A stretch of 64,000 nucleotides of DNA from assembly GCA_964563715.1 (NCBI GenBank), contig CAZLXA010000002.1:9467-73466 (forward strand), in the 5' to 3' direction. Below, in pieces: positions 2,771 through 29,250 of the stretch. Under the pieces are notes generated by a model. The model ran no database searches, was not told the DNA's origin, and saw only the letters and a list, made by a program, of their open reading frames with translations. The translations under genes and the position numbers were made by a program. Source of the stretch: an uncultured Candidatus Saccharibacteria bacterium. GTDB taxonomy: Bacteria > Patescibacteriota > Minisyncoccia > Phycocordibacterales > UBA9973. The first letter of the stretch is position 1, and every line of letters begins with the position of its first letter.

Positions 2771-3904
2771 CTAGTTACTAGAACCTGCCTTATTGTCTTC
2801 TAAATAAACGAGCGTCATTCTCTGGTCTTTTGGTTCAAAAAGAGTCACTTGGAAATTATATGTTTTACCAAGTTCGAGCGTTTTCTTTAATTTCTCCTCA
2901 GAGCCAAATCCTGAATTATGAGCAAGTCCAGCAACGCCTTGTTTAATAGAGATAAGAGCTCCGTGTTTATTGAATTTGATAACAACTCCAGAGACGATGT
3001 CGCCCTTTTTAAGTGTATTTTCAAATTCTTTCCAAGGATTATCTTTTAAGGCTTTAACTGAAAGTGATATTTTACCATCTTTGATTTCAATAATTCTTGC
3101 TTTAACTTTATCACCAACTTTAAACATTGTTCGTGGATCTTCAACTAGACCCCAATCAATTTCAGAAATGTGAACTAAACCTTCAAGACCTTCTTCAACT
3201 TTTAAGAAAATACCAAAGTCAACAATTCCAGCCACGGTACATTCAATATCATCACCAACAGCATATTTACCAACAATTTCTTGTCTTTCTTCTGGGTTAT
3301 TGTCTTTTTCAGAGAAAATAAGTTTTCCTTCTTTGGGTAAAGCAGAAATCATAACAACACTGATTCTTTTACCAATCAGTAATTTCAAGGCCTTCAAAAT
3401 TTTATCTTTATCAGAATCTTCTACCCTTGGATAGTGTTCACTCTTAAGTTGAGAAGCCGGAAGGAAACCTGCGATTCCTTGCCATTCTAATATTAAACCA
3501 CCTTTATTGGCTTCTTTGATTGTTAATTCAAGAGCAACTTTTGATTTAATAGCTTTTTCAGCTTCACTCCAAATCAAAGCTTGCTTGGCTTCTTTTAGTG
3601 ATAACTCGAAATATCCTTCTTCATTATCAATAGAAACAACTTTCGCTTTAACAACATCGCCGATATTTATTTTCTTAATAATATCTTTGGCGTTAATAAA
3701 TTCACGGCCATAAATAATACCTGTTCCAAAAGGAGCCAGATCAATATAAACCGATGATTTTTGAATTGAAATAACCGGACCTTCAACTAGAGCTTCTATT
3801 TGAGGTGGTAATTCGACTTTGTCTAACATTTTACCAATACTCGAAAGTTCGATTTTGGCATTTTCGGCAATACTATCTATAACGTCTTTATCTTCATTTT
3901 TCAT
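2771..3904 (-). CDS. rpsA: 30S ribosomal protein S1-like (four S1 domains)
   Basis: Repeated S1-domain signatures (GxVxxxxxFGxFVxL, GLxHxSE), 377 aa. Confidence 0.8.
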   Translation of the reverse strand: MKNEDKDVIDSIAENAKIELSSIGKMLDKVELPPQIEALVEGPVISIQKSSVYIDLAPFGTGIIYGREFINAKDIIKKINIGDVVKAKVVSIDNEEGYFELSLKEAKQALIWSEAEKAIKSKVALELTIKEANKGGLILEWQGIAGFLPASQLKSEHYPRVEDSDKDKILKALKLLIGKRISVVMISALPKEGKLIFSEKDNNPEERQEIVGKYAVGDDIECTVAGIVDFGIFLKVEEGLEGLVHISEIDWGLVEDPRTMFKVGDKVKARIIEIKDGKISLSVKALKDNPWKEFENTLKKGDIVSGVVIKFNKHGALISIKQGVAGLAHNSGFGSEEKLKKTLELGKTYNFQVTLFEPKDQRMTLVYLEDNKAGSSN

Positions 3905-4076
3905 ATTTATTAATATTTAGTTATCAGAAATTCTTCTTCTGGCACTAAAAAAACCGCATCTTGCGGCACAGTTGAAGATCTTTTTGTTTTACTTAATCAA
4001 ACTACAAAAAGGGGTAACCTTCAAACCGAGCTTATAATTTAATTAATATACTATATATATAATAATTAATCAACTC

Positions 4077-4103
4077 CCAGATAGCGGCAAGGCCGCTATC
4101 TGG
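4077..4103. repeat. REP-like hairpin copy 1 (CCAGATAGCGGC-AAG-GCCGCTATCTGG)
   Basis: Perfect 12-bp stem, 29 nt upstream of the ATG at 4133. Confidence 0.9.
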
Positions 4104-4132
4104 TATTTTTTGTTTGTAGTATAATAAATATT

Positions 4133-4861
4133 ATGAGTATAAGGAGACAGCCATTGATAACAGAACAAATTTATCATATTTACAATCGTGGGGTTGATAA
4201 ACGTGATATTTTCATAGATAAAAACGACGTTTATCGTTTTGTTGAAAGTACCAAAGAATTCAATAGAGAAGACAAAATACTTAGCCTTGCGAATCTTCAT
4301 AAACCTAAACTAAATTCCCAGATAGCGGCCTTGCCGCTATCTGGGGAAGAAAACAAAAAACCACTAGTTGAAATAATTGGGTATTGTTTAAATCCAAATC
4401 ATTTTCATTTTATTTTAAAACAATCTGTTGATGATGGTATATCTAAATTCATGCATAAACTGCAAGGGGGGTATACATCATATTTTAATATAAAAAATAA
4501 TAGATCAGGGTGTCTTTTTCAGGGAAAATTTAAATCACAAATAATTGTTAATGAAGATTATTTTAATAAATTGATAGGTTATGTAAATAAAAATTATTTA
4601 ATCCATAGTATCCCAGAAAATAAAAATGATTTAGTTTTTTCAGGTGATTATGAATATGAAAATAATAAATTTAATATTATTTCCAAAAATGAAGGCGAAA
4701 GAATTTTAGAAGTTTTTGGAGGAATCAATAAATTTAAAAGACATTGCGATTCTGTGGTTTCGGCAGTTAGAGAAGAAAGAGGAAAAAACTCTTTACTTCA
4801 AGATGAGGATTTCAATACAGTCATCGAAAGCCTTCCAGATAGCGGCCTTGCCGCTATCTAG
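4133..4861 (+). CDS. HUH / Y1 transposase-like protein (IS200 TnpA / REP-associated tyrosine transposase family)
   Basis: IYHIYNRG N-terminus, HUH motif NPNHFHFIL, RSGCLFQGKFKS, then YVNKNYLIH as a candidate Tyr region. The cognate-looking hairpins flank it. Confidence 0.65.
   Translation: MSIRRQPLITEQIYHIYNRGVDKRDIFIDKNDVYRFVESTKEFNREDKILSLANLHKPKLNSQIAALPLSGEENKKPLVEIIGYCLNPNHFHFILKQSVDDGISKFMHKLQGGYTSYFNIKNNRSGCLFQGKFKSQIIVNEDYFNKLIGYVNKNYLIHSIPENKNDLVFSGDYEYENNKFNIISKNEGERILEVFGGINKFKRHCDSVVSAVREERGKNSLLQDEDFNTVIESLPDSGLAAI
4318..4344. repeat. REP-like hairpin copy 2, inside the HUH ORF and in frame
   Basis: CCAGATAGCGGC-CTT-GCCGCTATCTGG, translated as QIAALPLSG. Confidence 0.9.
4835..4861. 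repeat. REP-like hairpin copy 3, containing the stop codon of the HUH ORF
   Basis: Same 27-mer with one G>A change (CTATCTAGG), which creates the TAG stop. Confidence 0.9.
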
Positions 4862-4945
4862 GGATTTGGGCAATTTAGGATGTATATATTTGGTTTTTGA
4901 ACTAGTATTCTTTCTTTTTTAAGTATTATTTGGTATAATATATTT

Positions 4946-5572
4946 ATGATTATCACATATTTTGGAAAGCAATTCTTTAAAATCGGTCAAGGTAGTTTAA
5001 CAGTGGCTTTTAATCCTATCAGTAAAGATTCAAAATTTGCTTCACTCGCTAGTCGTTTTGGTTCGGATATTGCTCTTTCGACAATTAATCATCCAGATTA
5101 TAATGGTTTTGAAATGGTTACTCACGGAGAAACGGTACCTTTTGAAATAAAAGGCCCAGGTGATTATGAAATTAAAGATATTTTTATTAAAGGAGTAATG
5201 ACTAACACCGAAATAGATGGAAAGAAATATATTAATACAATATATTCATTGTCTATTGAAAATATTTCCCTTTGTTTTTTGGGTGCAGTATCAGATGAAA
5301 AATTTAATGCTATAGTTCGCGAACAAATAGAATCACCAGATATACTATTTGTGCCAATTGGTAACAATGATTTACTAAGCCCAATCGAAGCTTATAAATT
5401 AGCTGTGACCCTAGAACCCAAAATAATTATCCCAATGGATTATGATGAAAAAACGTTGAAAATATTTTTGAAAGAAGCTGGTCAAGAAAAAGTAGCATCG
5501 ATTGAGAAACTTACAATAAAAGCTAAAGAGTTAATTGGTCGTGAAGGGGAGATTGTCGTATTATCATCATAA
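4946..5572 (+). CDS. MBL-fold (UPF0173/YtkL-like) hydrolase, putative
   Basis: MIITYFGxxxFKI N-terminus and overall pattern resemble Lactamase_B_3-type proteins. No clear HxHxDH motif. Confidence 0.5.
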   Translation: MIITYFGKQFFKIGQGSLTVAFNPISKDSKFASLASRFGSDIALSTINHPDYNGFEMVTHGETVPFEIKGPGDYEIKDIFIKGVMTNTEIDGKKYINTIYSLSIENISLCFLGAVSDEKFNAIVREQIESPDILFVPIGNNDLLSPIEAYKLAVTLEPKIIIPMDYDEKTLKIFLKEAGQEKVASIEKLTIKAKELIGREGEIVVLSS

Positions 5573-10327: not shown

Positions 10328-10750
10328 ATGATTAAAAAATCGTTAATGTTTGTGCTGGCTTTTGTTATAATTTTCTTACCATCTTTTTTTGTCCTTGAGG
10401 CAAAAGAAGTTCAATTTAAAGGACTAGTGCCAATTTGTAATACTATGGTTGATGGAGCCAAAGGTGGTTTTTCTGATCCTTGTGATTTTGATGTGTTACT
10501 TGCTTTTGTAAATAAAATCATAAATTTTCTTTTAGTTGTCATGGCCACACCACTTTTTGCTCTTATTTTAGTTTATGTGGGTTGGTTGTACCTTAGTGAC
10601 ATGGGTAGTGCTGAGAATATTGGTAAGGCCAAAAAGATTTTGAAAAATGTTGTCATTGGTTATATCATAGCACTGGCTGCGTGGTTAATTGTTAAAACCA
10701 TACTTTCAACATTAGGCTTTAATCCAAAAGATGCATTTTTGCTTTTTTAA
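10328..10750 (+). CDS. TrbC/VirB2-like T4SS pilin family protein, paralog 1
   Basis: Signal peptide, GLVPIC...PCDF motif, then two hydrophobic helices split by a GSAENIGKAKKILKN loop. Confidence 0.55.
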   Translation: MIKKSLMFVLAFVIIFLPSFFVLEAKEVQFKGLVPICNTMVDGAKGGFSDPCDFDVLLAFVNKIINFLLVVMATPLFALILVYVGWLYLSDMGSAENIGKAKKILKNVVIGYIIALAAWLIVKTILSTLGFNPKDAFLLF

Positions 10751-10796
10751 TTATTATTAATCGTCGTTTTTAATATAGAATATATTTAATAAAAAA

Positions 10797-11234
10797 ATGA
10801 AGTTTTTAAAAAGAAGAAAATATGGTTTGATGTCAAATATTTTAAAGTATAGTTTTGTTATAGTTTTTGCATTAATGTTGATCACTCCAGTTTTATTGGT
10901 AAATGCAGAATTTGAGACAGGCGATGGTGTAAGCACTGGTACAAATATTACTACCGGTATTGAAAATCCACTGGGTCAAGATGGCCCTCAAGATATCCCG
11001 GCATTCATTCGTCTTATTGTCCGAGCGATTTTATATGTCGGAGTACCAATTGTCGCTTTAGCTATTATTTATACTGGATTTTTATTTGTGGAAGCGCAAG
11101 GCAATCCCGAGAAAATTACGAAAGCTAAGAAGGCTTTAACCTATACACTGATTGGGGCAGCATTATTATTAGGAGCATTTGTTGTCGCAGAAGCGATACA
11201 AGCAACGGTCGAAGAAATTACAAGCACAACATAA
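10797..11234 (+). CDS. TrbC/VirB2-like pilin family protein, paralog 2
   Basis: Signal peptide plus two TM helices separated by QGNPEKITKAKKAL. Confidence 0.5.
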   Translation: MKFLKRRKYGLMSNILKYSFVIVFALMLITPVLLVNAEFETGDGVSTGTNITTGIENPLGQDGPQDIPAFIRLIVRAILYVGVPIVALAIIYTGFLFVEAQGNPEKITKAKKALTYTLIGAALLLGAFVVAEAIQATVEEITSTT

Positions 11235-11265
11235 TATTATGTTGATTATTAATAAATATTAATTT

Positions 11266-11679
11266 ATGAAGAAAAAATTTGTATTACTCAGTAGTTTAAT
11301 TATTGTTGGATTGTTAATGTTTACCTCCGTAGGGGCAGTTTCTCCTGCAGATGGTAGTCCAGCTGTAACATCAACTACAACTGAGAGAATTTGTAGTAAT
11401 AATTCATTGACAGATGTAACCGGTATAATTAATTGGGCTAGTTGTTTGTTGGTTAAAACAATAATTCCATTTTTATTTGCTCTGGCAACAGTAGCCTTTA
11501 TTTGGGGAGTGATTCAATATTATTTGAATCCTGATAATGAAGAGAAAAGAAAAAAAGGTAAAAGTTTTATTATTGGAGGTTTGATTGCATTATTTGTCAT
11601 GTTGTCAGTCTGGGGCCTAGTCGCAATCTTAACTAACACATTTGGGTTGAGTAATACTATTCCACAGCTTCCACAATAG
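11266..11679 (+). CDS. TrbC/VirB2-like pilin family protein, paralog 3
   Basis: Signal peptide, FIWGVIQYY, loop NPDNEEKRKKGKS, second TM helix. Confidence 0.5.
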   Translation: MKKKFVLLSSLIIVGLLMFTSVGAVSPADGSPAVTSTTTERICSNNSLTDVTGIINWASCLLVKTIIPFLFALATVAFIWGVIQYYLNPDNEEKRKKGKSFIIGGLIALFVMLSVWGLVAILTNTFGLSNTIPQLPQ

Positions 11680-11793
11680 GGTAGATATTGTTTTTTGTTT
11701 TTGTGTTATACTTAGTTAGTAAAGGTAAAAGTCTTTTTCACTTTGGTCGGTAGAAAAGACAATATTATAAAAATGTTTTATTATTAAAAATAT

Positions 11794-12159
11794 ATGAAGA
11801 AAATTATTTCGTTTGGGGCAGTTTTGGGAGCTTTCCCAGTTGTGGCTTTAGCTGCTGATGCTTGGTCAATTTTGGGTAATATTGGTAATCTATTAGGATT
11901 TGTTATTCCAATACTTATTACTTTAGCAGTTGTTTATTTTATCTGGGGTGTCATTCAATACACTGTTTCAAATGATGAAGAAGCTAAGAAGGGTGCTCGT
12001 GGTAAAATTATTCAAGGACTTATCGGTTTGTTTGTTATTGTGGCCTTCTGGGGCATTTTATCACTTATAACAAGTACATTTGGAGTAGGACCTGAACAAT
12101 TAGACCCAAGTATGATTCCTTGTATTCCAAATGAACAAGCAGGAGTATTTTGTAATTAA
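11794..12159 (+). CDS. TrbC/VirB2-like pilin family protein, paralog 4
   Basis: Signal peptide, FIWGVIQYT, loop SNDEEAKKGARGK, second TM helix. Closest to paralog 3. Confidence 0.5.
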   Translation: MKKIISFGAVLGAFPVVALAADAWSILGNIGNLLGFVIPILITLAVVYFIWGVIQYTVSNDEEAKKGARGKIIQGLIGLFVIVAFWGILSLITSTFGVGPEQLDPSMIPCIPNEQAGVFCN

Positions 12160-12162
12160 TTT

Positions 12163-12486
12163 ATGTTTCAAATTATTCCCATAGCTGAAGCTAATATTGT
12201 GACTTTAATGGAAAGTATTAATCGGGTTATTATTAATCCATTAATTATTTTACTTTTTGCTTTGGCTGCCGTTTACTTCCTATTTGGTGTGGCTAAATTT
12301 TTATTAGCCCAAGGCAATGAAGAAGTTCGTAAGACAAGTAAAAGTCATATGGTTTGGGGAATAGTTGGAATGTTTATTATGATTGCCGTTTTCGGAATAA
12401 TGAATATTATTCTTACAACTCTAGATGAGGATAGAATAAATTTAGAAGATAATGGTAATTACACAATACAAGAGATGGTTCAATAG
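12163..12486 (+). CDS. TrbC/VirB2-like pilin family protein, paralog 5
   Basis: Two TM helices separated by QGNEEVRKTSKSH. Starts 3 nt after paralog 4. Confidence 0.45.
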   Translation: MFQIIPIAEANIVTLMESINRVIINPLIILLFALAAVYFLFGVAKFLLAQGNEEVRKTSKSHMVWGIVGMFIMIAVFGIMNIILTTLDEDRINLEDNGNYTIQEMVQ

Positions 12487-12511
12487 TATAAACAAAAATA
12501 TACAAAAGAAA

Positions 12512-12547
12512 AACGCCTCCTCATTTGATTGAGGGGGCGTTTTGTTT
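12512..12547. terminator. bidirectional terminator hairpin
   Basis: AAACGCCTCCTCA-TTTGAT-TGAGGGGGCGTTT followed by a T-run, between convergent genes. Confidence 0.55.
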
Positions 12548-12562
12548 TTTGAAATGTACAAA

Positions 12563-12991
12563 TTATATATCTCGCTTTCGCAAGATTAAGTAACCAGATT
12601 CTCCATTGCTTGATTTAAACCAAAGTTGTTCATTGTGCTCTGATTTTCCAAACTTAGAGGAAATGTCTTGTTTCTTTTGTCCACATTTTTCAACACCATT
12701 CGCATTTATTACGCAGTATGGCTGTGTTGAATTTAGGAAAGCTCCACGACAAGAGCTGGGCACATAAACAGGATCTCCATATTCACCAGTATAATACACT
12801 GTGTCGTATGTGTATTCGATATTGGCGACGGTAGTGGAAGAATTTGCTCCAGGACTATACTCCATTTTTGGCGGATCATAATTCAATTCATCGTTATCTT
12901 TTGCTTTGGAATTTTTTATTCCGGAGATGATAAAAGGAATTACGATAATCAAAATGAGTGCAATACTCAAGAAAATTTTTAACTTATTCAT
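12563..12991 (-). CDS. secreted/membrane-anchored hypothetical protein (142 aa)
   Basis: N-terminal TM helix or signal peptide, and 3 Cys. Its start overlaps the upstream gene's stop (ATGA). Confidence 0.45.
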   Translation of the reverse strand: MNKLKIFLSIALILIIVIPFIISGIKNSKAKDNDELNYDPPKMEYSPGANSSTTVANIEYTYDTVYYTGEYGDPVYVPSSCRGAFLNSTQPYCVINANGVEKCGQKKQDISSKFGKSEHNEQLWFKSSNGESGYLILRKRDI

Positions 12992-14531: not shown

Positions 14532-14606
14532 GGCCTTATCGTCTAACGGTTAGGACATCGGCTTTTCAAGCCGGTAATCCGGGTTCGATTCCCGGTAGGG
14601 TCACCA
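14532..14606 (+). tRNA. tRNA-Glu (anticodon UUC), CCA encoded
   Basis: Cloverleaf folded by hand: acceptor GGCCTTA/TAGGGTC, anticodon stem TCGGC/GCCGG, loop TTTTCAA, T-arm CCGGG-TTCGATT-CCCGG. Confidence 0.9.
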
Positions 14607-16275
14607 ACAAGCCTTTTGAAGTATATTTTTCTCTATTTATCCTTAAAACTAAAGTCAATTTAGGTGTTCCACTAATTATTTCTTTACAAGTTGGAAACTC
14701 TTCAAAGATCAAACTAAATACTGCCTGCAATTCTTCGGGAGAAGTAATATCTTCAAGCATTTTAGCTGGGTGTTCCATTAAATCTTTTGAAGATTTAATA
14801 TACTCGATTACATCTTCTTCTCTTAATTCAACAGTTTTTCTATTTTCTTTCGATTTATTTATTTTAACTTGTAGTTCTGCTATTTGTTCTTCAATACCAT
14901 TTCTAACAGCGTCCATCGTAGCTAATGGAAAAGATTTTATTAAGTTTGCCTTCTCTAACTCCAAATCTGCAATATGTTGATTTGCTTGAGAAGAAGAAAT
15001 AGCAAGATCACCTTCTTGTTCACGATACTTGAAAAGCAAAACTCTATCAAGAATTTTTATAAAACTATCCGTATAACGAAGTTTGTTTATAAAAGTAAAA
15101 AATTGTTTTTCAATCTCAATTTGATTATAAGAGACTCTTTTATGATTTCTTTCACAGTGATACGCGCCAAATTTAGCACCACTTTTACCAGTTGAAAAAC
15201 TAGCCTTCATAGATTTCCTACAAATATCACAAAGAAGCACCCCTTTAATCGGAAAACTAGGATTATATTTTTTTCTTTTTGCAGAAAGACTAGAAAGATT
15301 TTTCTTTAAAATTAACTGATCTTTACTAATACTTTCAAGATAAATTTTACCTCTGTTTGCTTTATTAAAAGTATCTATAGATACTAAGCCTTTATATTTA
15401 GCAATAATAGGTTGATTTTTTGTCCATTTTTCACATATAACACCACAATAAGTTGTTCTTTTAATTATTGCCTGTAAATGTTTTACTGTCATCTGATGTC
15501 CTCCTATTGAACCCAAAACTTTTTGTTTTGATTTATCCCATCTTTTTTGTAATGGTGTTTTATATCCGATAGTATTTAACTCATCACAAATTTGTTTATC
15601 GGACAATAAACCATCAGCTCGTAAATTAAAAACTTTAATTATAAAAAGTGATCTTTCAGGGTCTGGAACTTGTATACATTTCTTTTTATTTTCAACAAAA
15701 ATTTGTTTATTTACATATCCTTCATCAGGTCTACCTATTTGATAACCATCTTGGGTAAGGCGTATTTCTGGCTTAATAAGACGATGCAAAATTTTTATTC
15801 TTTCTTTTCTTGCGTCTTCAACTTTCTGCCTTTCTGCGTCTTCGCTCGGTCTTGCCACAGCCCAAGAATATTCAAAATCAAAACCAAATTCCTCGAAAGA
15901 ATTTTTCTCATCTTGAATTATTTCTGTTGTATCTCTTAATTTTACATCGAATTGTTTTACATCTTCCCATATTTGATCATAGTCAATGGTTCCAGCTCTA
16001 GTCAATCTATCAAAATCCCAAAAAACAAAATATTTTATATTTACTTGCTTTTTATTGCCCTTTAGTATTTCCATTATTTGTAAATAAACAGGTCTATTTT
16101 TCTTTGTCCCTGTGTAAGGTTCTTTAAAAACAATACCTTGAGGAAAGAGTTTCCAACCCATTTTTTCACAATGAAGTTTTATTTCTCTTTCTTGATCATC
16201 TAAACCCTCGCCATTTTGAGCTTGTTTTGGGCTACTAACTCTTGCATATCCAATTACATAAATAGGTTCGTTCAT
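14566..16275 (-). CDS. large serine recombinase (resolvase/invertase N-domain + recombinase domain + zinc ribbon)
   Basis: YARVSSPKQ catalytic-Ser motif, central recombinase domain, CDICRKS...YHCERNH zinc ribbon and a coiled-coil tail. The last 13 codons are antisense to tRNA-Glu. Confidence 0.85.
   Translation of the reverse strand: MNEPIYVIGYARVSSPKQAQNGEGLDDQEREIKLHCEKMGWKLFPQGIVFKEPYTGTKKNRPVYLQIMEILKGNKKQVNIKYFVFWDFDRLTRAGTIDYDQIWEDVKQFDVKLRDTTEIIQDEKNSFEEFGFDFEYSWAVARPSEDAERQKVEDARKERIKILHRLIKPEIRLTQDGYQIGRPDEGYVNKQIFVENKKKCIQVPDPERSLFIIKVFNLRADGLLSDKQICDELNTIGYKTPLQKRWDKSKQKVLGSIGGHQMTVKHLQAIIKRTTYCGVICEKWTKNQPIIAKYKGLVSIDTFNKANRGKIYLESISKDQLILKKNLSSLSAKRKKYNPSFPIKGVLLCDICRKSMKASFSTGKSGAKFGAYHCERNHKRVSYNQIEIEKQFFTFINKLRYTDSFIKILDRVLLFKYREQEGDLAISSSQANQHIADLELEKANLIKSFPLATMDAVRNGIEEQIAELQVKINKSKENRKTVELREEDVIEYIKSSKDLMEHPAKMLEDITSPEELQAVFSLIFEEFPTCKEIISGTPKLTLVLRINREKYTSKGLLVTLPGIEPGLPA
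14590..14604. repeat. attL core (direct repeat)
   Basis: TCCCGGTAGGGTCAC, identical to 21491-21505. Confidence 0.8.
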
Positions 16276-17257: not shown

Positions 17258-17367
17258 TTACAGTTTACCATTTTTGCTTCAATTTTCCTTAGTTTTTTGT
17301 TATACTAAAATCACAACTAAATAAGTTTTCCTAACCCCTATGAGATTTATTATAGGATATGGAATTT

Positions 17368-17507
17368 AATCGCGACGAACTTAAAGAACCTATCATTAGG
17401 GCGTTCGTCGCGTTATATTGGGAAACCGATATATAGATCTTCGGATCTTCCTAGTGGTAGGCTTTTTGCGTCTTACGCTAGGAATTTATCATTAAATCGC
17501 GACGAAC
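17368..17507. promoter_or_regulatory. iteron/operator-like repeats in the divergent intergenic region
   Basis: AATCGCGACGAAC at 17368-17380 and 17495-17507, with an inverted copy GTTCGTCGCG at 17403-17412. Also an AGATC-TTCG-GATCT hairpin. Confidence 0.45.
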
Positions 17508-28860: not shown

Positions 28861-29250
28861 TTATGAAAACATTTTAAGGTATTTCTTCTCTTGTCTTTCC
28901 ATTGTACTACTATGTTCGAAACCTTTCAAATGCAAACAACCGTGGATAACTAATAATTTGAAAAATTGAGTATAAGTCATCATAAAAAGTGGAGCATCCT
29001 TTTTGACCTTTTTTGGATCAATGGTTATTTCCCCAGAATTTTCTGATAAAGGAAAAGATAAAATATTTGTTGTTTCATTTCTGCCTCGGTATTTTAAATT
29101 GATTTGTTTTTGTTTCTGTGGCGATAGTAGACTTAGTCCGAATTCATAATCTTTACCTAGGATTTTATTTTTTATCGAAACAAAAGGCACTCCGACCGGG
29201 GTCGGAGTGCCTTTTGTTTTGTTTACAATAGTACAAAAACCAGTATTCAT
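28861..29250 (-). CDS. ybeY: rRNA maturation RNase YbeY
   Basis: HGCLHLKGFEH zinc motif. The true start may be the in-frame GTG at 29190, because 29183-29215 is a terminator-like hairpin. Confidence 0.8.
   Translation of the reverse strand: MNTGFCTIVNKTKGTPTPVGVPFVSIKNKILGKDYEFGLSLLSPQKQKQINLKYRGRNETTNILSFPLSENSGEITIDPKKVKKDAPLFMMTYTQFFKLLVIHGCLHLKGFEHSSTMERQEKKYLKMFS
29183..29215 (-). terminator. hairpin/T-run downstream of rpsU
   Basis: AAAAGGCACTCCGAC-CGG-GGTCGGAGTGCCTTTT, about 45 nt after the rpsU stop. Confidence 0.5.

Follow-up and report, generated by a model that had tools for sequence, protein, structure and literature searches.

A RAYT-like HUH endonuclease gene of CPR bacteria and its apparently gene-private, position-fixed hairpin

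RAYTs, a common kind of domesticated transposase, have a cellular role that is still under debate. Escherichia coli RayT (TnpA-REP, YafM) binds the hairpins of repetitive extragenic palindromes (REPs) and carries out cleavage and strand transfer (PMC3479197). With its REP/BIME sequences it makes up a 'REPtron', and RAYT genes that have cognate REPs on either side are well known. REPs also lie in frame within the tnpA-REP genes of TnpAY1 subclass 2.4 (Quentin et al. 2018, PMC6006769), which equals the Bertels group 4 RAYTs of Cyanobacteria and Bacteroidetes and whose REPs carry GT[AG]G and are dispersed over the genome (PMC6006769). No REP-like hairpins and no intragenic copies have been reported for subclass 2.1 (Quentin et al. 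2018, PMC6006769), and the TIRYTs are accompanied by terminal inverted repeats (GGGGWSAS), not stem-loops (Di Nocera et al. 2013, PMC3733652). Cases in which the end of a REP provides a stop codon, or in which a REP overlaps the end of a tyrosine-transposase gene, are on record as well (PMC3733652). Here we describe a 64-kb stretch of contig CAZLXA010000002.1 (the window, to which all plain coordinates refer), in which a RAYT/TnpA-REP-like Y1 HUH endonuclease gene is flanked and entered by copies of a single hairpin, the whole system being reduced to one 0.8-kb unit in very small genomes. Our survey of the literature on Candidate Phyla Radiation (CPR) bacteria or Patescibacteria combined with RAYTs or Y1 transposases found no description of this family. 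With in-frame REPs in RAYT genes already known, the locus represents a 'REPtron' that is private to its gene and fixed in position, and such a unit has apparently not been described before in CPR bacteria.

An earlier note on this DNA, made from its letters, had reported a 27-nt hairpin in three copies, and each of them is present in the sequence as it was described. The upstream copy (U, 4077-4103) reads CCAGATAGCGGC-aag-GCCGCTATCTGG and has a perfect 12-bp stem with an AAG loop, flipped relative to the other two; its 3' edge lies 29 nt ahead of the ATG at 4133. The internal copy (I1, 4318-4344) reads CCAGATAGCGGC-ctt-GCCGCTATCTGG, with a CTT loop and a true stem of 13 perfect base pairs (4317-4345), and spans codons 62-71, which encode the peptide S-QIAALPLSG. 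The 3' copy (T, 4835-4861) reads CCAGATAGCGGC-ctt-GCCGCTATCTAG, again with a CTT loop; one G>A change in its last arm (...CTATCTAG) leaves a stem of 10 perfect base pairs followed by a C·A mismatch and one further pair, and the final three bases of this arm are the TAG stop of the gene. All three copies are listed without strand. T encodes PDSGLAAI in a reading frame that differs from that of I1, and "in frame", for the internal copy, means merely that the open reading frame (ORF) is unbroken. The 12-mer arm, with at most one mismatch allowed, has six half-sites in the 64 kb, all within the three copies (shuffle expectation 0.01; 0/100 shuffles reached 6), and the other 63 kb of the window hold no further copy of the 27-nt palindrome. 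At a window G+C content of 32%, U, I1, and T make up three of the ten GC-rich perfect hairpins of at least 8 bp.

The gene (4133-4861, + strand), whose ORF also holds NRSGCLFQGKFKS, specifies a protein of 242 amino acids with a Y1 core at residues 13-152 and a helical C-terminal domain at 162-216. Its HUH motif (H90-F91-H92; 4400-4408, +) aligns to H59-M60-H61 of RayT, and its catalytic helix (Y150-V-N-K-N154-Y-L-I-H158; 4580-4606, +) to Y115, N119, and H123, residues whose active-site roles in RayT have been described (PMC3479197). The IS200/RAYT-like identity first proposed for the protein has held up: the Pfam profile Y1_Tnp (PF01797) matches residues 78-153 with profile positions 40-120 at 27.3 bits, above the gathering cutoff of 23, and an AlphaFold2 model built on 99 homologs (mean pLDDT 76.6) finds E. 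coli TnpA-REP as its top PDB match in Foldseek (4er8_A, probability 1.0, target TM-score 0.66), followed by the TnpA structures of IS608 and ISDra2 (2A6M, 2VJV, and 2XM3 among the matches). The modelled core consists of a strand (13-17), a helix (30-42), two strands (79-86 and 91-97), a helix (102-121), a strand (134-138), and the catalytic helix (141-152). Since F91, H92, Y150, N154, and H158 are invariant and H90 nearly so among the 99 homologs, the enzyme looks catalytically intact, and the suggestion of a decaying RAYT finds no footing in a locus that has invariant catalytic residues and is syntenic across relatives.

With E. coli RayT, its best structural match, the window protein shares the Y1 HUH fold and the aligned HUH, Tyr, Asn, and His residues, and the gene shares the condition of a single-copy, vertically inherited unit with cognate hairpins on both sides, the loops of which are inverted in this window. 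The two differ in that identity is ~16% and the window protein stays under the NCBIfam RayT cutoff; RayT has 165 amino acids, against 242 here, where the loop before the HUH strand is ~30 residues longer and a helical C-terminal domain is added. The stems at our locus are perfect, lack the GTAG guide, are not dispersed in high copy, and recur inside the coding sequence. Model confidence drops below a pLDDT of 50 at residues 56-74 and 220-242, precisely the two hairpin-encoded peptides, which are modelled as disordered; the hairpin-encoded residues coincide with hypervariable alignment columns, and the I1 peptide is part of a hypervariable loop that connects helix A with the strand preceding HUH. 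The earlier note had asked whether residues ~55-80 are an insertion. Residues ~45-77 are indeed extra with respect to the general family, as indicated by the start of the Pfam match at 78, by an hhalign alignment that places residue 76 opposite RayT residue 45, and by the low pLDDT at 56-74, but the extra segment is not recent.

The protein has 1662 indexed homologs and, among representatives clustered at 50% identity, matches 502 clusters at E<=1e-30; those members that bear a name belong to Candidatus Nomurabacteria and Paceibacteria, and the source genome is of this Nomurabacteria/Paceibacteria (CPR) type. We inspected 80 metagenome loci and three loci fetched by exact protein (L numbers below), and an unbiased folding scan (40-nt windows, minimum free energy <= -14 kcal/mol) covered 66 complete loci. 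In homologs down to ~35% identity, a GC-rich perfect hairpin recurs at the same places: U at ~25-55 nt upstream of the start, I1 at nucleotides +165 to +215 (codons ~58-72), a further internal copy (I2) in many distant members at +445 to +505, just past the catalytic-tyrosine helix, and T over the stop codon. Strong folds were found at U, I1, I2, and T in 70%, 55%, 29%, and 71% of the complete loci, respectively, two or more sites being occupied in 50 of the 66; elsewhere in the ORF a strong fold appeared at one locus only and in 0.07% of windows, and seven loci had none at any site. The I1 peptide is visible throughout the protein alignments as SQI[AGEV]A[LKR]PLS and the C terminus as LPD[SR]G(xAAI), and the L/R and L/K alternatives of the former match flipped loops. 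The internal copy is therefore not a recent or odd insertion, the same codons carrying it in all orthologs and in distant homologs. Homologs that keep the segment keep the palindrome with it, so that the pattern which the earlier note had named as a refutation, a segment conserved in homologs without the palindrome, does not arise. The lower stem is clade specific (CAGATAG in the window clade; ACTTGG or GACGT in others), and the upper four pairs vary freely while staying Watson-Crick. The idea that the flanking copies are always inverted, as they are in REPtrons and REPINs, was rejected because orientation varies among loci.

The stop codon follows the hairpin in a regular manner. Most members stop inside the T loop (TAA or TGA); where the loop is CTT, AAG, or GCGAAAG, the frame continues across the 3' arm as far as ATC TGA. 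At the place of the window's ATC TAG, four orthologs have ATC TGA; together with the distant members that stop in the loop, this makes the window TAG a variant of a conserved stop position. The G>A change that the earlier note saw is present, but a stop at this codon is no novelty. As a separate observation, one arm is repeated directly (>=8 nt, no more than 30 nt away) at 11 of 166 hairpins, mostly the 3' arm on its downstream side, at U or T, with a rough chance expectation of ~0.3 (L011, L013, L021, L030, L034, L041, L042, L055, L064, and L066); these could be slippage products, extra half-sites, or ligation footprints.

An in-frame copy of the hairpin within its cognate gene was earlier called unusual, which is overstated in view of the subclass 2.4 precedent (PMC6006769). 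There, too, cognate palindromes flank and enter the gene, the frame stays intact, the residues they encode lie at the periphery of the structure, the HUH motif takes the form NH[IFV]H, and the palindromic stem foot recalls that of 'double foot' REPs. Our family differs in having two fixed internal sites, I1 before HuH and I2 after Y, in deep-family conservation, in change concerted with the flanking copies, and in near confinement to the gene; compared by published motifs, its NHFH fits, whereas FQ (not WQ) and YVNKNY (not YIxNNP) do not. With regard to the class-2 signature Y---NP, Y---N is kept and P replaced in YVNKNY, while the distant members L056, L069, and L085 have YIH[LCA]NP. To subclass 2.1 and the TIRYTs the family is linked by NH[YF]H, FQ, and the Y[IV]HLNP of those three distant members, by a median length of ~238 amino acids and an extra C-terminal domain, and by low copy number with flanking repeats that are often unamplified in the genome. 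By the published descriptions, the set of NHFH, FQ, and YVNKNY with ~240 amino acids and a C-terminal domain appears closer to subclass 2.1. New in relation to the literature are three things: the coding copies hold their positions throughout a deep family, they covary strictly with the flanking copies, and dispersed copies are nearly absent.

All hairpin copies at one gene change together. Within a locus, 123 of 165 pairs (75%) agree fully in the 8-nt loop-proximal arm, versus 254 of 13863 pairs (1.8%) between loci, and arm identity amounts to 72-94% for every combination of U, I1, I2, and T; 46 loci contain 35 distinct stems, counted as loop-proximal 8-mers. The encoded peptides covary accordingly, QIAA occurring with PDSG and QIGA with PDRG, as fits a C-G stem pair turned into G-C in both copies. 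Covariation was scored on fifteen orthologs or close homologs chosen by protein homology only, a count on hairpin-selected rows having been circular for the percentage paired. In this alignment 89.7% of helix cells are paired and five pairs have changed on both sides, with a covariation score of 0.287 versus 0.093 in shuffles (0/500 shuffles reached 0.287). In the I1 codon alignment (CAG ATA GNG ... CCN CTA TCT), the second position of codon 65 pairs with the silent third position of codon 68 in all four ways (A-T 5, C-G 3, G-C 3, T-A 2). L087 displays a compensated single-pair difference between its copies, AGGC in I1 versus TGGC in U and T.

Loci with two genes extend this relation to paralogs. 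L016 contains two paralogs 6 kb apart, with the hairpins CAGATAGAGGT and TGCGCAAGGT; its second gene (11955-12645) has TGCGCAAGGT at -49 and +663. The second gene of L037 (1901-2600) likewise has its own hairpin, ACTTGGAAAC, at +206 and +693. Both second paralogs are divergent (37-40% identity to the query), with hairpins at the same relative positions. Each paralog having its own hairpin argues for a cognate gene-hairpin relation, not for a general host signal, in agreement with the former proposal that the palindrome is the gene's own hairpin, which flanks it in this window in opposite loop orientation.

On the whole we consider it probable, with some reserve, that the gene encodes an intact, vertically inherited RAYT-type Y1 HUH endonuclease of single-stranded DNA (ssDNA) and that the palindrome is its private DNA hairpin, acting mainly in cis. 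The protein would bind hairpins extruded from single-stranded or supercoiled DNA, as RayT does with REPs, reading the conserved lower stem and requiring of the upper stem pairing only. Action in cis could let the enzyme limit its own expression through the promoter-overlapping U and the I and T copies in the transcribed region. Cleavage and strand-transfer chemistry, together with palindrome-correcting template switching, might keep the copies identical, and the coding copies would be tolerated because they encode disordered surface peptides.

Several points weigh against this reading. The NCBIfam profile REP_Tyr_transpos (NF047646) scores 29.6 bits, under its cutoff of 80; the family profile, searched against PDB sequences, returned neither 4ER8 nor any other Y1 match, whereas the fold search did find 4ER8; and the hhalign match to E. 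coli RayT is weak (E 0.019), with the active-site residues still aligned. Unlike in canonical REPs, the GT[AG]G guide is absent from the stem foot, the lower stem having ATAG within CAGATAG, or ACTTGG. The U loop is flipped relative to the internal copies at ~20 loci and has the same orientation at ~14. Seven of the 66 complete loci lack a strong hairpin and have an intact ORF, so hairpins are dispensable for keeping the gene. Template switching alone can keep palindromes perfect, and compensatory changes are therefore in themselves no proof of selection; the cis-regulatory and homogenizing roles are ones that we infer. Finally, the exact 27-mer occurs elsewhere once at each of five loci of other CPR-type genomes, always in intergenic DNA, and REP-like dissemination does exist at a very low level.

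These lone 27-mers (L001:5867-5893, L002:7869-7895, L003:2282-2308, L004:2840-2866, and L006:1508-1534) have no HUH gene within the fetched DNA, and one of them lies on a second contig of the metagenome-assembled genome that also holds L005. The L003 and L004 copies share the same downstream gene, and that of L006, a locus of 49% G+C, is separated from a tRNA gene's 3' end by 6 nt. Lone stems are identical across very different genomes, although the stems of close orthologs differ. The flanks of 54 loci (410,502 nt) contain 7 extra hairpin copies. Counting of hairpin copies, once proposed with REPIN-like pairs in mind, thus yielded a few extra copies in the flanks and none in the window, and the REP- or REPIN-like abundance did not materialize: high-copy dispersal is absent from the window and the 54 flanks, and so is a GT[AG]G/CGTC foot on an imperfect stem. 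Dispersal was viewed through 64 kb of the source genome plus the fetched loci only.

The most serious competitor, which we nevertheless judge unlikely, views the copies as selfish or neutral REP-like passengers that at some time entered the RAYT gene and its surroundings and live on in disordered loops, kept perfect by template switching and alike by occasional gene conversion, without benefit to gene or host. The disorder and hypervariability of the encoded peptides, the hairpin-free loci with their preserved ORFs, the frequent loop flips, and the slippage-like tandem arm copies beside 11 of 166 hairpins would all suit passengers, and in the literature REPs inside genes count as insertions that are tolerated. 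Rickettsia palindromic elements (RPE) and other intragenic REPs are short palindromes in frame within still-functional genes; those are dispersed families in unrelated genes, whereas the hairpin described here is conserved in position and private to the gene of its presumed own enzyme. Passengers are also hard to reconcile with the use of the same codons from 100% down to ~35% protein identity with hardly any hairpins elsewhere in the ORF, or with U always adjoining the -10 box and T always overlapping the stop. Moreover, copies 240-760 bp apart with ~25 bp of identity are identical in 72-94% of loci, a degree of uniformity that passive conversion by itself would hardly produce.

An active or recently active insertion sequence (IS) of the IS200/IS605 type, with U and T as its subterminal ends and I1 as a spare end, is improbable. 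The hairpin-ORF-hairpin layout with identical hairpins resembles IS200/IS605 elements (IS200, IS608, ISDra2), in which a Y1 HUH transposase likewise recognizes a subterminal DNA hairpin at either end; the TnpA structures of IS608 and ISDra2 are among the fold matches, and distant homologs do reside in differing gene contexts. Hairpins near the 5' end of IS200 are also known to damp expression. Those elements, however, are mobile and multicopy, with a TnpA of ~150 amino acids, a Y...Q motif, imperfect one-strand hairpins, and often tnpB. No such trait is seen in the window gene, which occupies a single syntenic position, encodes 242 amino acids including the extra C-terminal domain, carries the class-2 motif Y---N---H, and has no tnpB. 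Its setting is conserved: the gene order pth, S1(-), HUH, Lactamase_B_3, small ORF, gyrA, methyltransferase, SBP, T4SS-pilin is common to the window and to L005, L007, L008, L087, L088, and L089, where neighbor proteins are 75-92% and the HUH protein 72-81% identical; the stretch from pth to gyrA is kept in 7 relatives. Such synteny among close relatives points to vertical inheritance. The 64-kb window contains no paralog, and the ~85 loci with the gene include no near-identical copies in differing surroundings. Viral contigs contain no relatives, phages and plasmids yield only remote matches of 26-31% identity, and a defense-system or phage origin was rejected after PADLOC gave no match and PHROGs a single marginal one of no known function. 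Split or opposite-strand tblastn matches were absent from every locus, and thus nothing points to phase variation through an inversion between U and I1. Judged by synteny and conservation, the HUH gene in the window clade is resident, vertically inherited, and under purifying selection, as expected of a low-copy RAYT whose cognate palindrome flanks it (4077-4103 and 4835-4861 here) at most homolog loci.

One comparison does recall a mobile element. L070:1150-1811 and L041:5400-6100 are 94.7% identical, and their homology is lost exactly at the outer edge of the T hairpin; beyond it the two differ for ~500 nt, with different small minus-strand proteins, and then are identical again. L041 also has ~2.5 tandem copies of the 3' arm (ACCGCCAAGTG). 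This hairpin edge looks like a recombination or insertion breakpoint.

To a role of the copies as mRNA structures, with T as stabilizer or 3' end, I1 as translational brake, and U as terminator or insulator read by a host RNA-binding factor or RNase, we give very little credence. I1 and T are transcribed, the stop codon in the T loop or foot recalls REPs near stop codons, and U in the window, with the T run after it, scores as a + strand terminator. Outside the window, however, only L005 has the T tail, and U was therefore rejected as a conserved intrinsic terminator. Of 163 stems, 154 pair perfectly and 9 contain a single mismatch; mismatches read on the sense strand are G·T in 3 cases and A·C in 3, and the G·T bias that would betray RNA or one DNA strand is absent. 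Loops flip freely, and paralog-specific stems would be needless for a general host factor.

The position of U also speaks to this question. A TATAAT -10-like box (4120-4125, +) lies 7 nt before the ATG with no Shine-Dalgarno sequence and is kept in 12 of the 14 relatives with upstream sequence at hand. U ends 16 nt ahead of it, its 3' arm occupying the expected place of the -35 element and U as a whole being upstream of the box and hence outside the gene's own transcript. The layout in the window clade is hairpin, 13-17 nt, (TGn)TATAAT, 6-9 nt, ATG, again without Shine-Dalgarno, and in the ACTTGG clade a -10-like box follows directly on the hairpin, with the TTG of the 5' arm ~17 nt upstream of the box. 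This suggests a leaderless-type promoter for the HUH gene with U over its -35/spacer region; a simple sigma-70 scan made no call at the TATAAT box because there is no -35 match. The missing wobble tolerance and strand bias, the location of U upstream of the -10 box, and the frequent loop flips together favor a palindrome acting at the DNA level, foldable on either strand.

Barely credible is a set of duplex operators bound without hairpin formation by a dimeric regulator, possibly this protein through its C-terminal helical domain (162-216, with no assigned function), for while perfect two-fold symmetry suits a dimer, symmetric half-site changes mimic covariation, U overlaps the promoter, and subclass 2.1 relatives carry HTH-like tails, the symmetry runs up to the 3-nt loop through freely varying positions (all four base pairs at one of them) that would need none if uncontacted, sites in the coding sequence and stop codon are not expected of operators, and the conserved HUH and Tyr residues and a hairpin-bound enzyme as best structural match point to ssDNA chemistry.

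The family offers a setting with almost no dispersed repeats to confound the enzyme-hairpin relationship. Its at least 35 natural stem variants, with a conserved lower and a free upper stem, would amount to a specificity map for HUH-hairpin recognition that might be of use in HUH-tag engineering. The locus is also a clear case of concerted evolution between coding and noncoding copies of one element, in which the 'conserved' peptides QIAALPLSG and PDSGLAAI are dictated by DNA structure and not by protein function, a circumstance that bears on annotation and on evolutionary-rate analyses. A wider proposal, which we advance only tentatively and with evident doubt, is that the RAYTs of this CPR family regularly act on no hairpins but those of their own gene, a self-contained 'REPtron without REPs'. 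The enzyme would sense and throttle its own expression through the promoter, coding, and stop-codon copies and would actively rewrite them, so that target and gene coevolve as one unit. If true, two surface loops of the enzyme would be encoded by its own recognition site, the primary, ancestral activity of domesticated RAYTs would seem to be maintenance and regulation in cis, not REP dissemination, and dozens of natural orthogonal enzyme-hairpin pairs would exist.

The neighborhood of the gene has features of its own. Right after the 3' hairpin, within 4862-4945, a G-rich motif (GGATTTTGGGG...) is common to relatives. The Lactamase_B_3-like gene that follows (4946-5572) has its own TTGGTATAAT box 7-8 nt before the ATG (region 4930-4948) and, like the HUH gene, no Shine-Dalgarno sequence; leaderless-type starts may be common in this organism. 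On the other side, the S1 gene (rpsA-like; 2771-3904, -) has a leader conserved in relatives (...CAAAAAGGGGTAACCTTCAAACCGAGCTTATAAT..., within 3905-4035) with a terminator-like hairpin, GCCGCAAGATGCGGT followed by T7, at 3953-3967 (- strand), which could be an attenuator or an autoregulatory leader. The spacer between S1 and U varies: it is empty in the window, L088, L005, and L007, holds a gene for a 339-aa SBP_bac_3/Lig_chan protein in L087 (L087:8894-9913) and a 128-aa ORF in L089 (L089:9557-9943), and in L008 the distance from S1 to HUH is 820 nt. The region beside U may be an insertion hotspot.

Farther away, perfect hairpins of 16 and 19 bp at 2722-2756 and 29178-29219, with A-rich/T-rich flanks (CAAAAGG...CCTTTTG), have the appearance of common bidirectional terminators and no relation to the HUH hairpin; the former separates pth from S1, which are convergent, and L087 has an equivalent hairpin there. 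A run of small ORFs with signal-peptide-like N termini occupies 10328-12486, and its counterparts in L087-L089 match Pfam T4SS_pilin (PF18895). The end of a tRNA gene (14532-14603, +) is shared with a minus-strand ORF of 308 aa (14566-15492; N terminus MTVKHLQAIIKRTTYCGV...), which might be an integrase-type gene beside a tRNA. At 17328-17449 (+), the window matches the Rfam LOOT RNA with 70.9 bits against a gathering score of 46.4.

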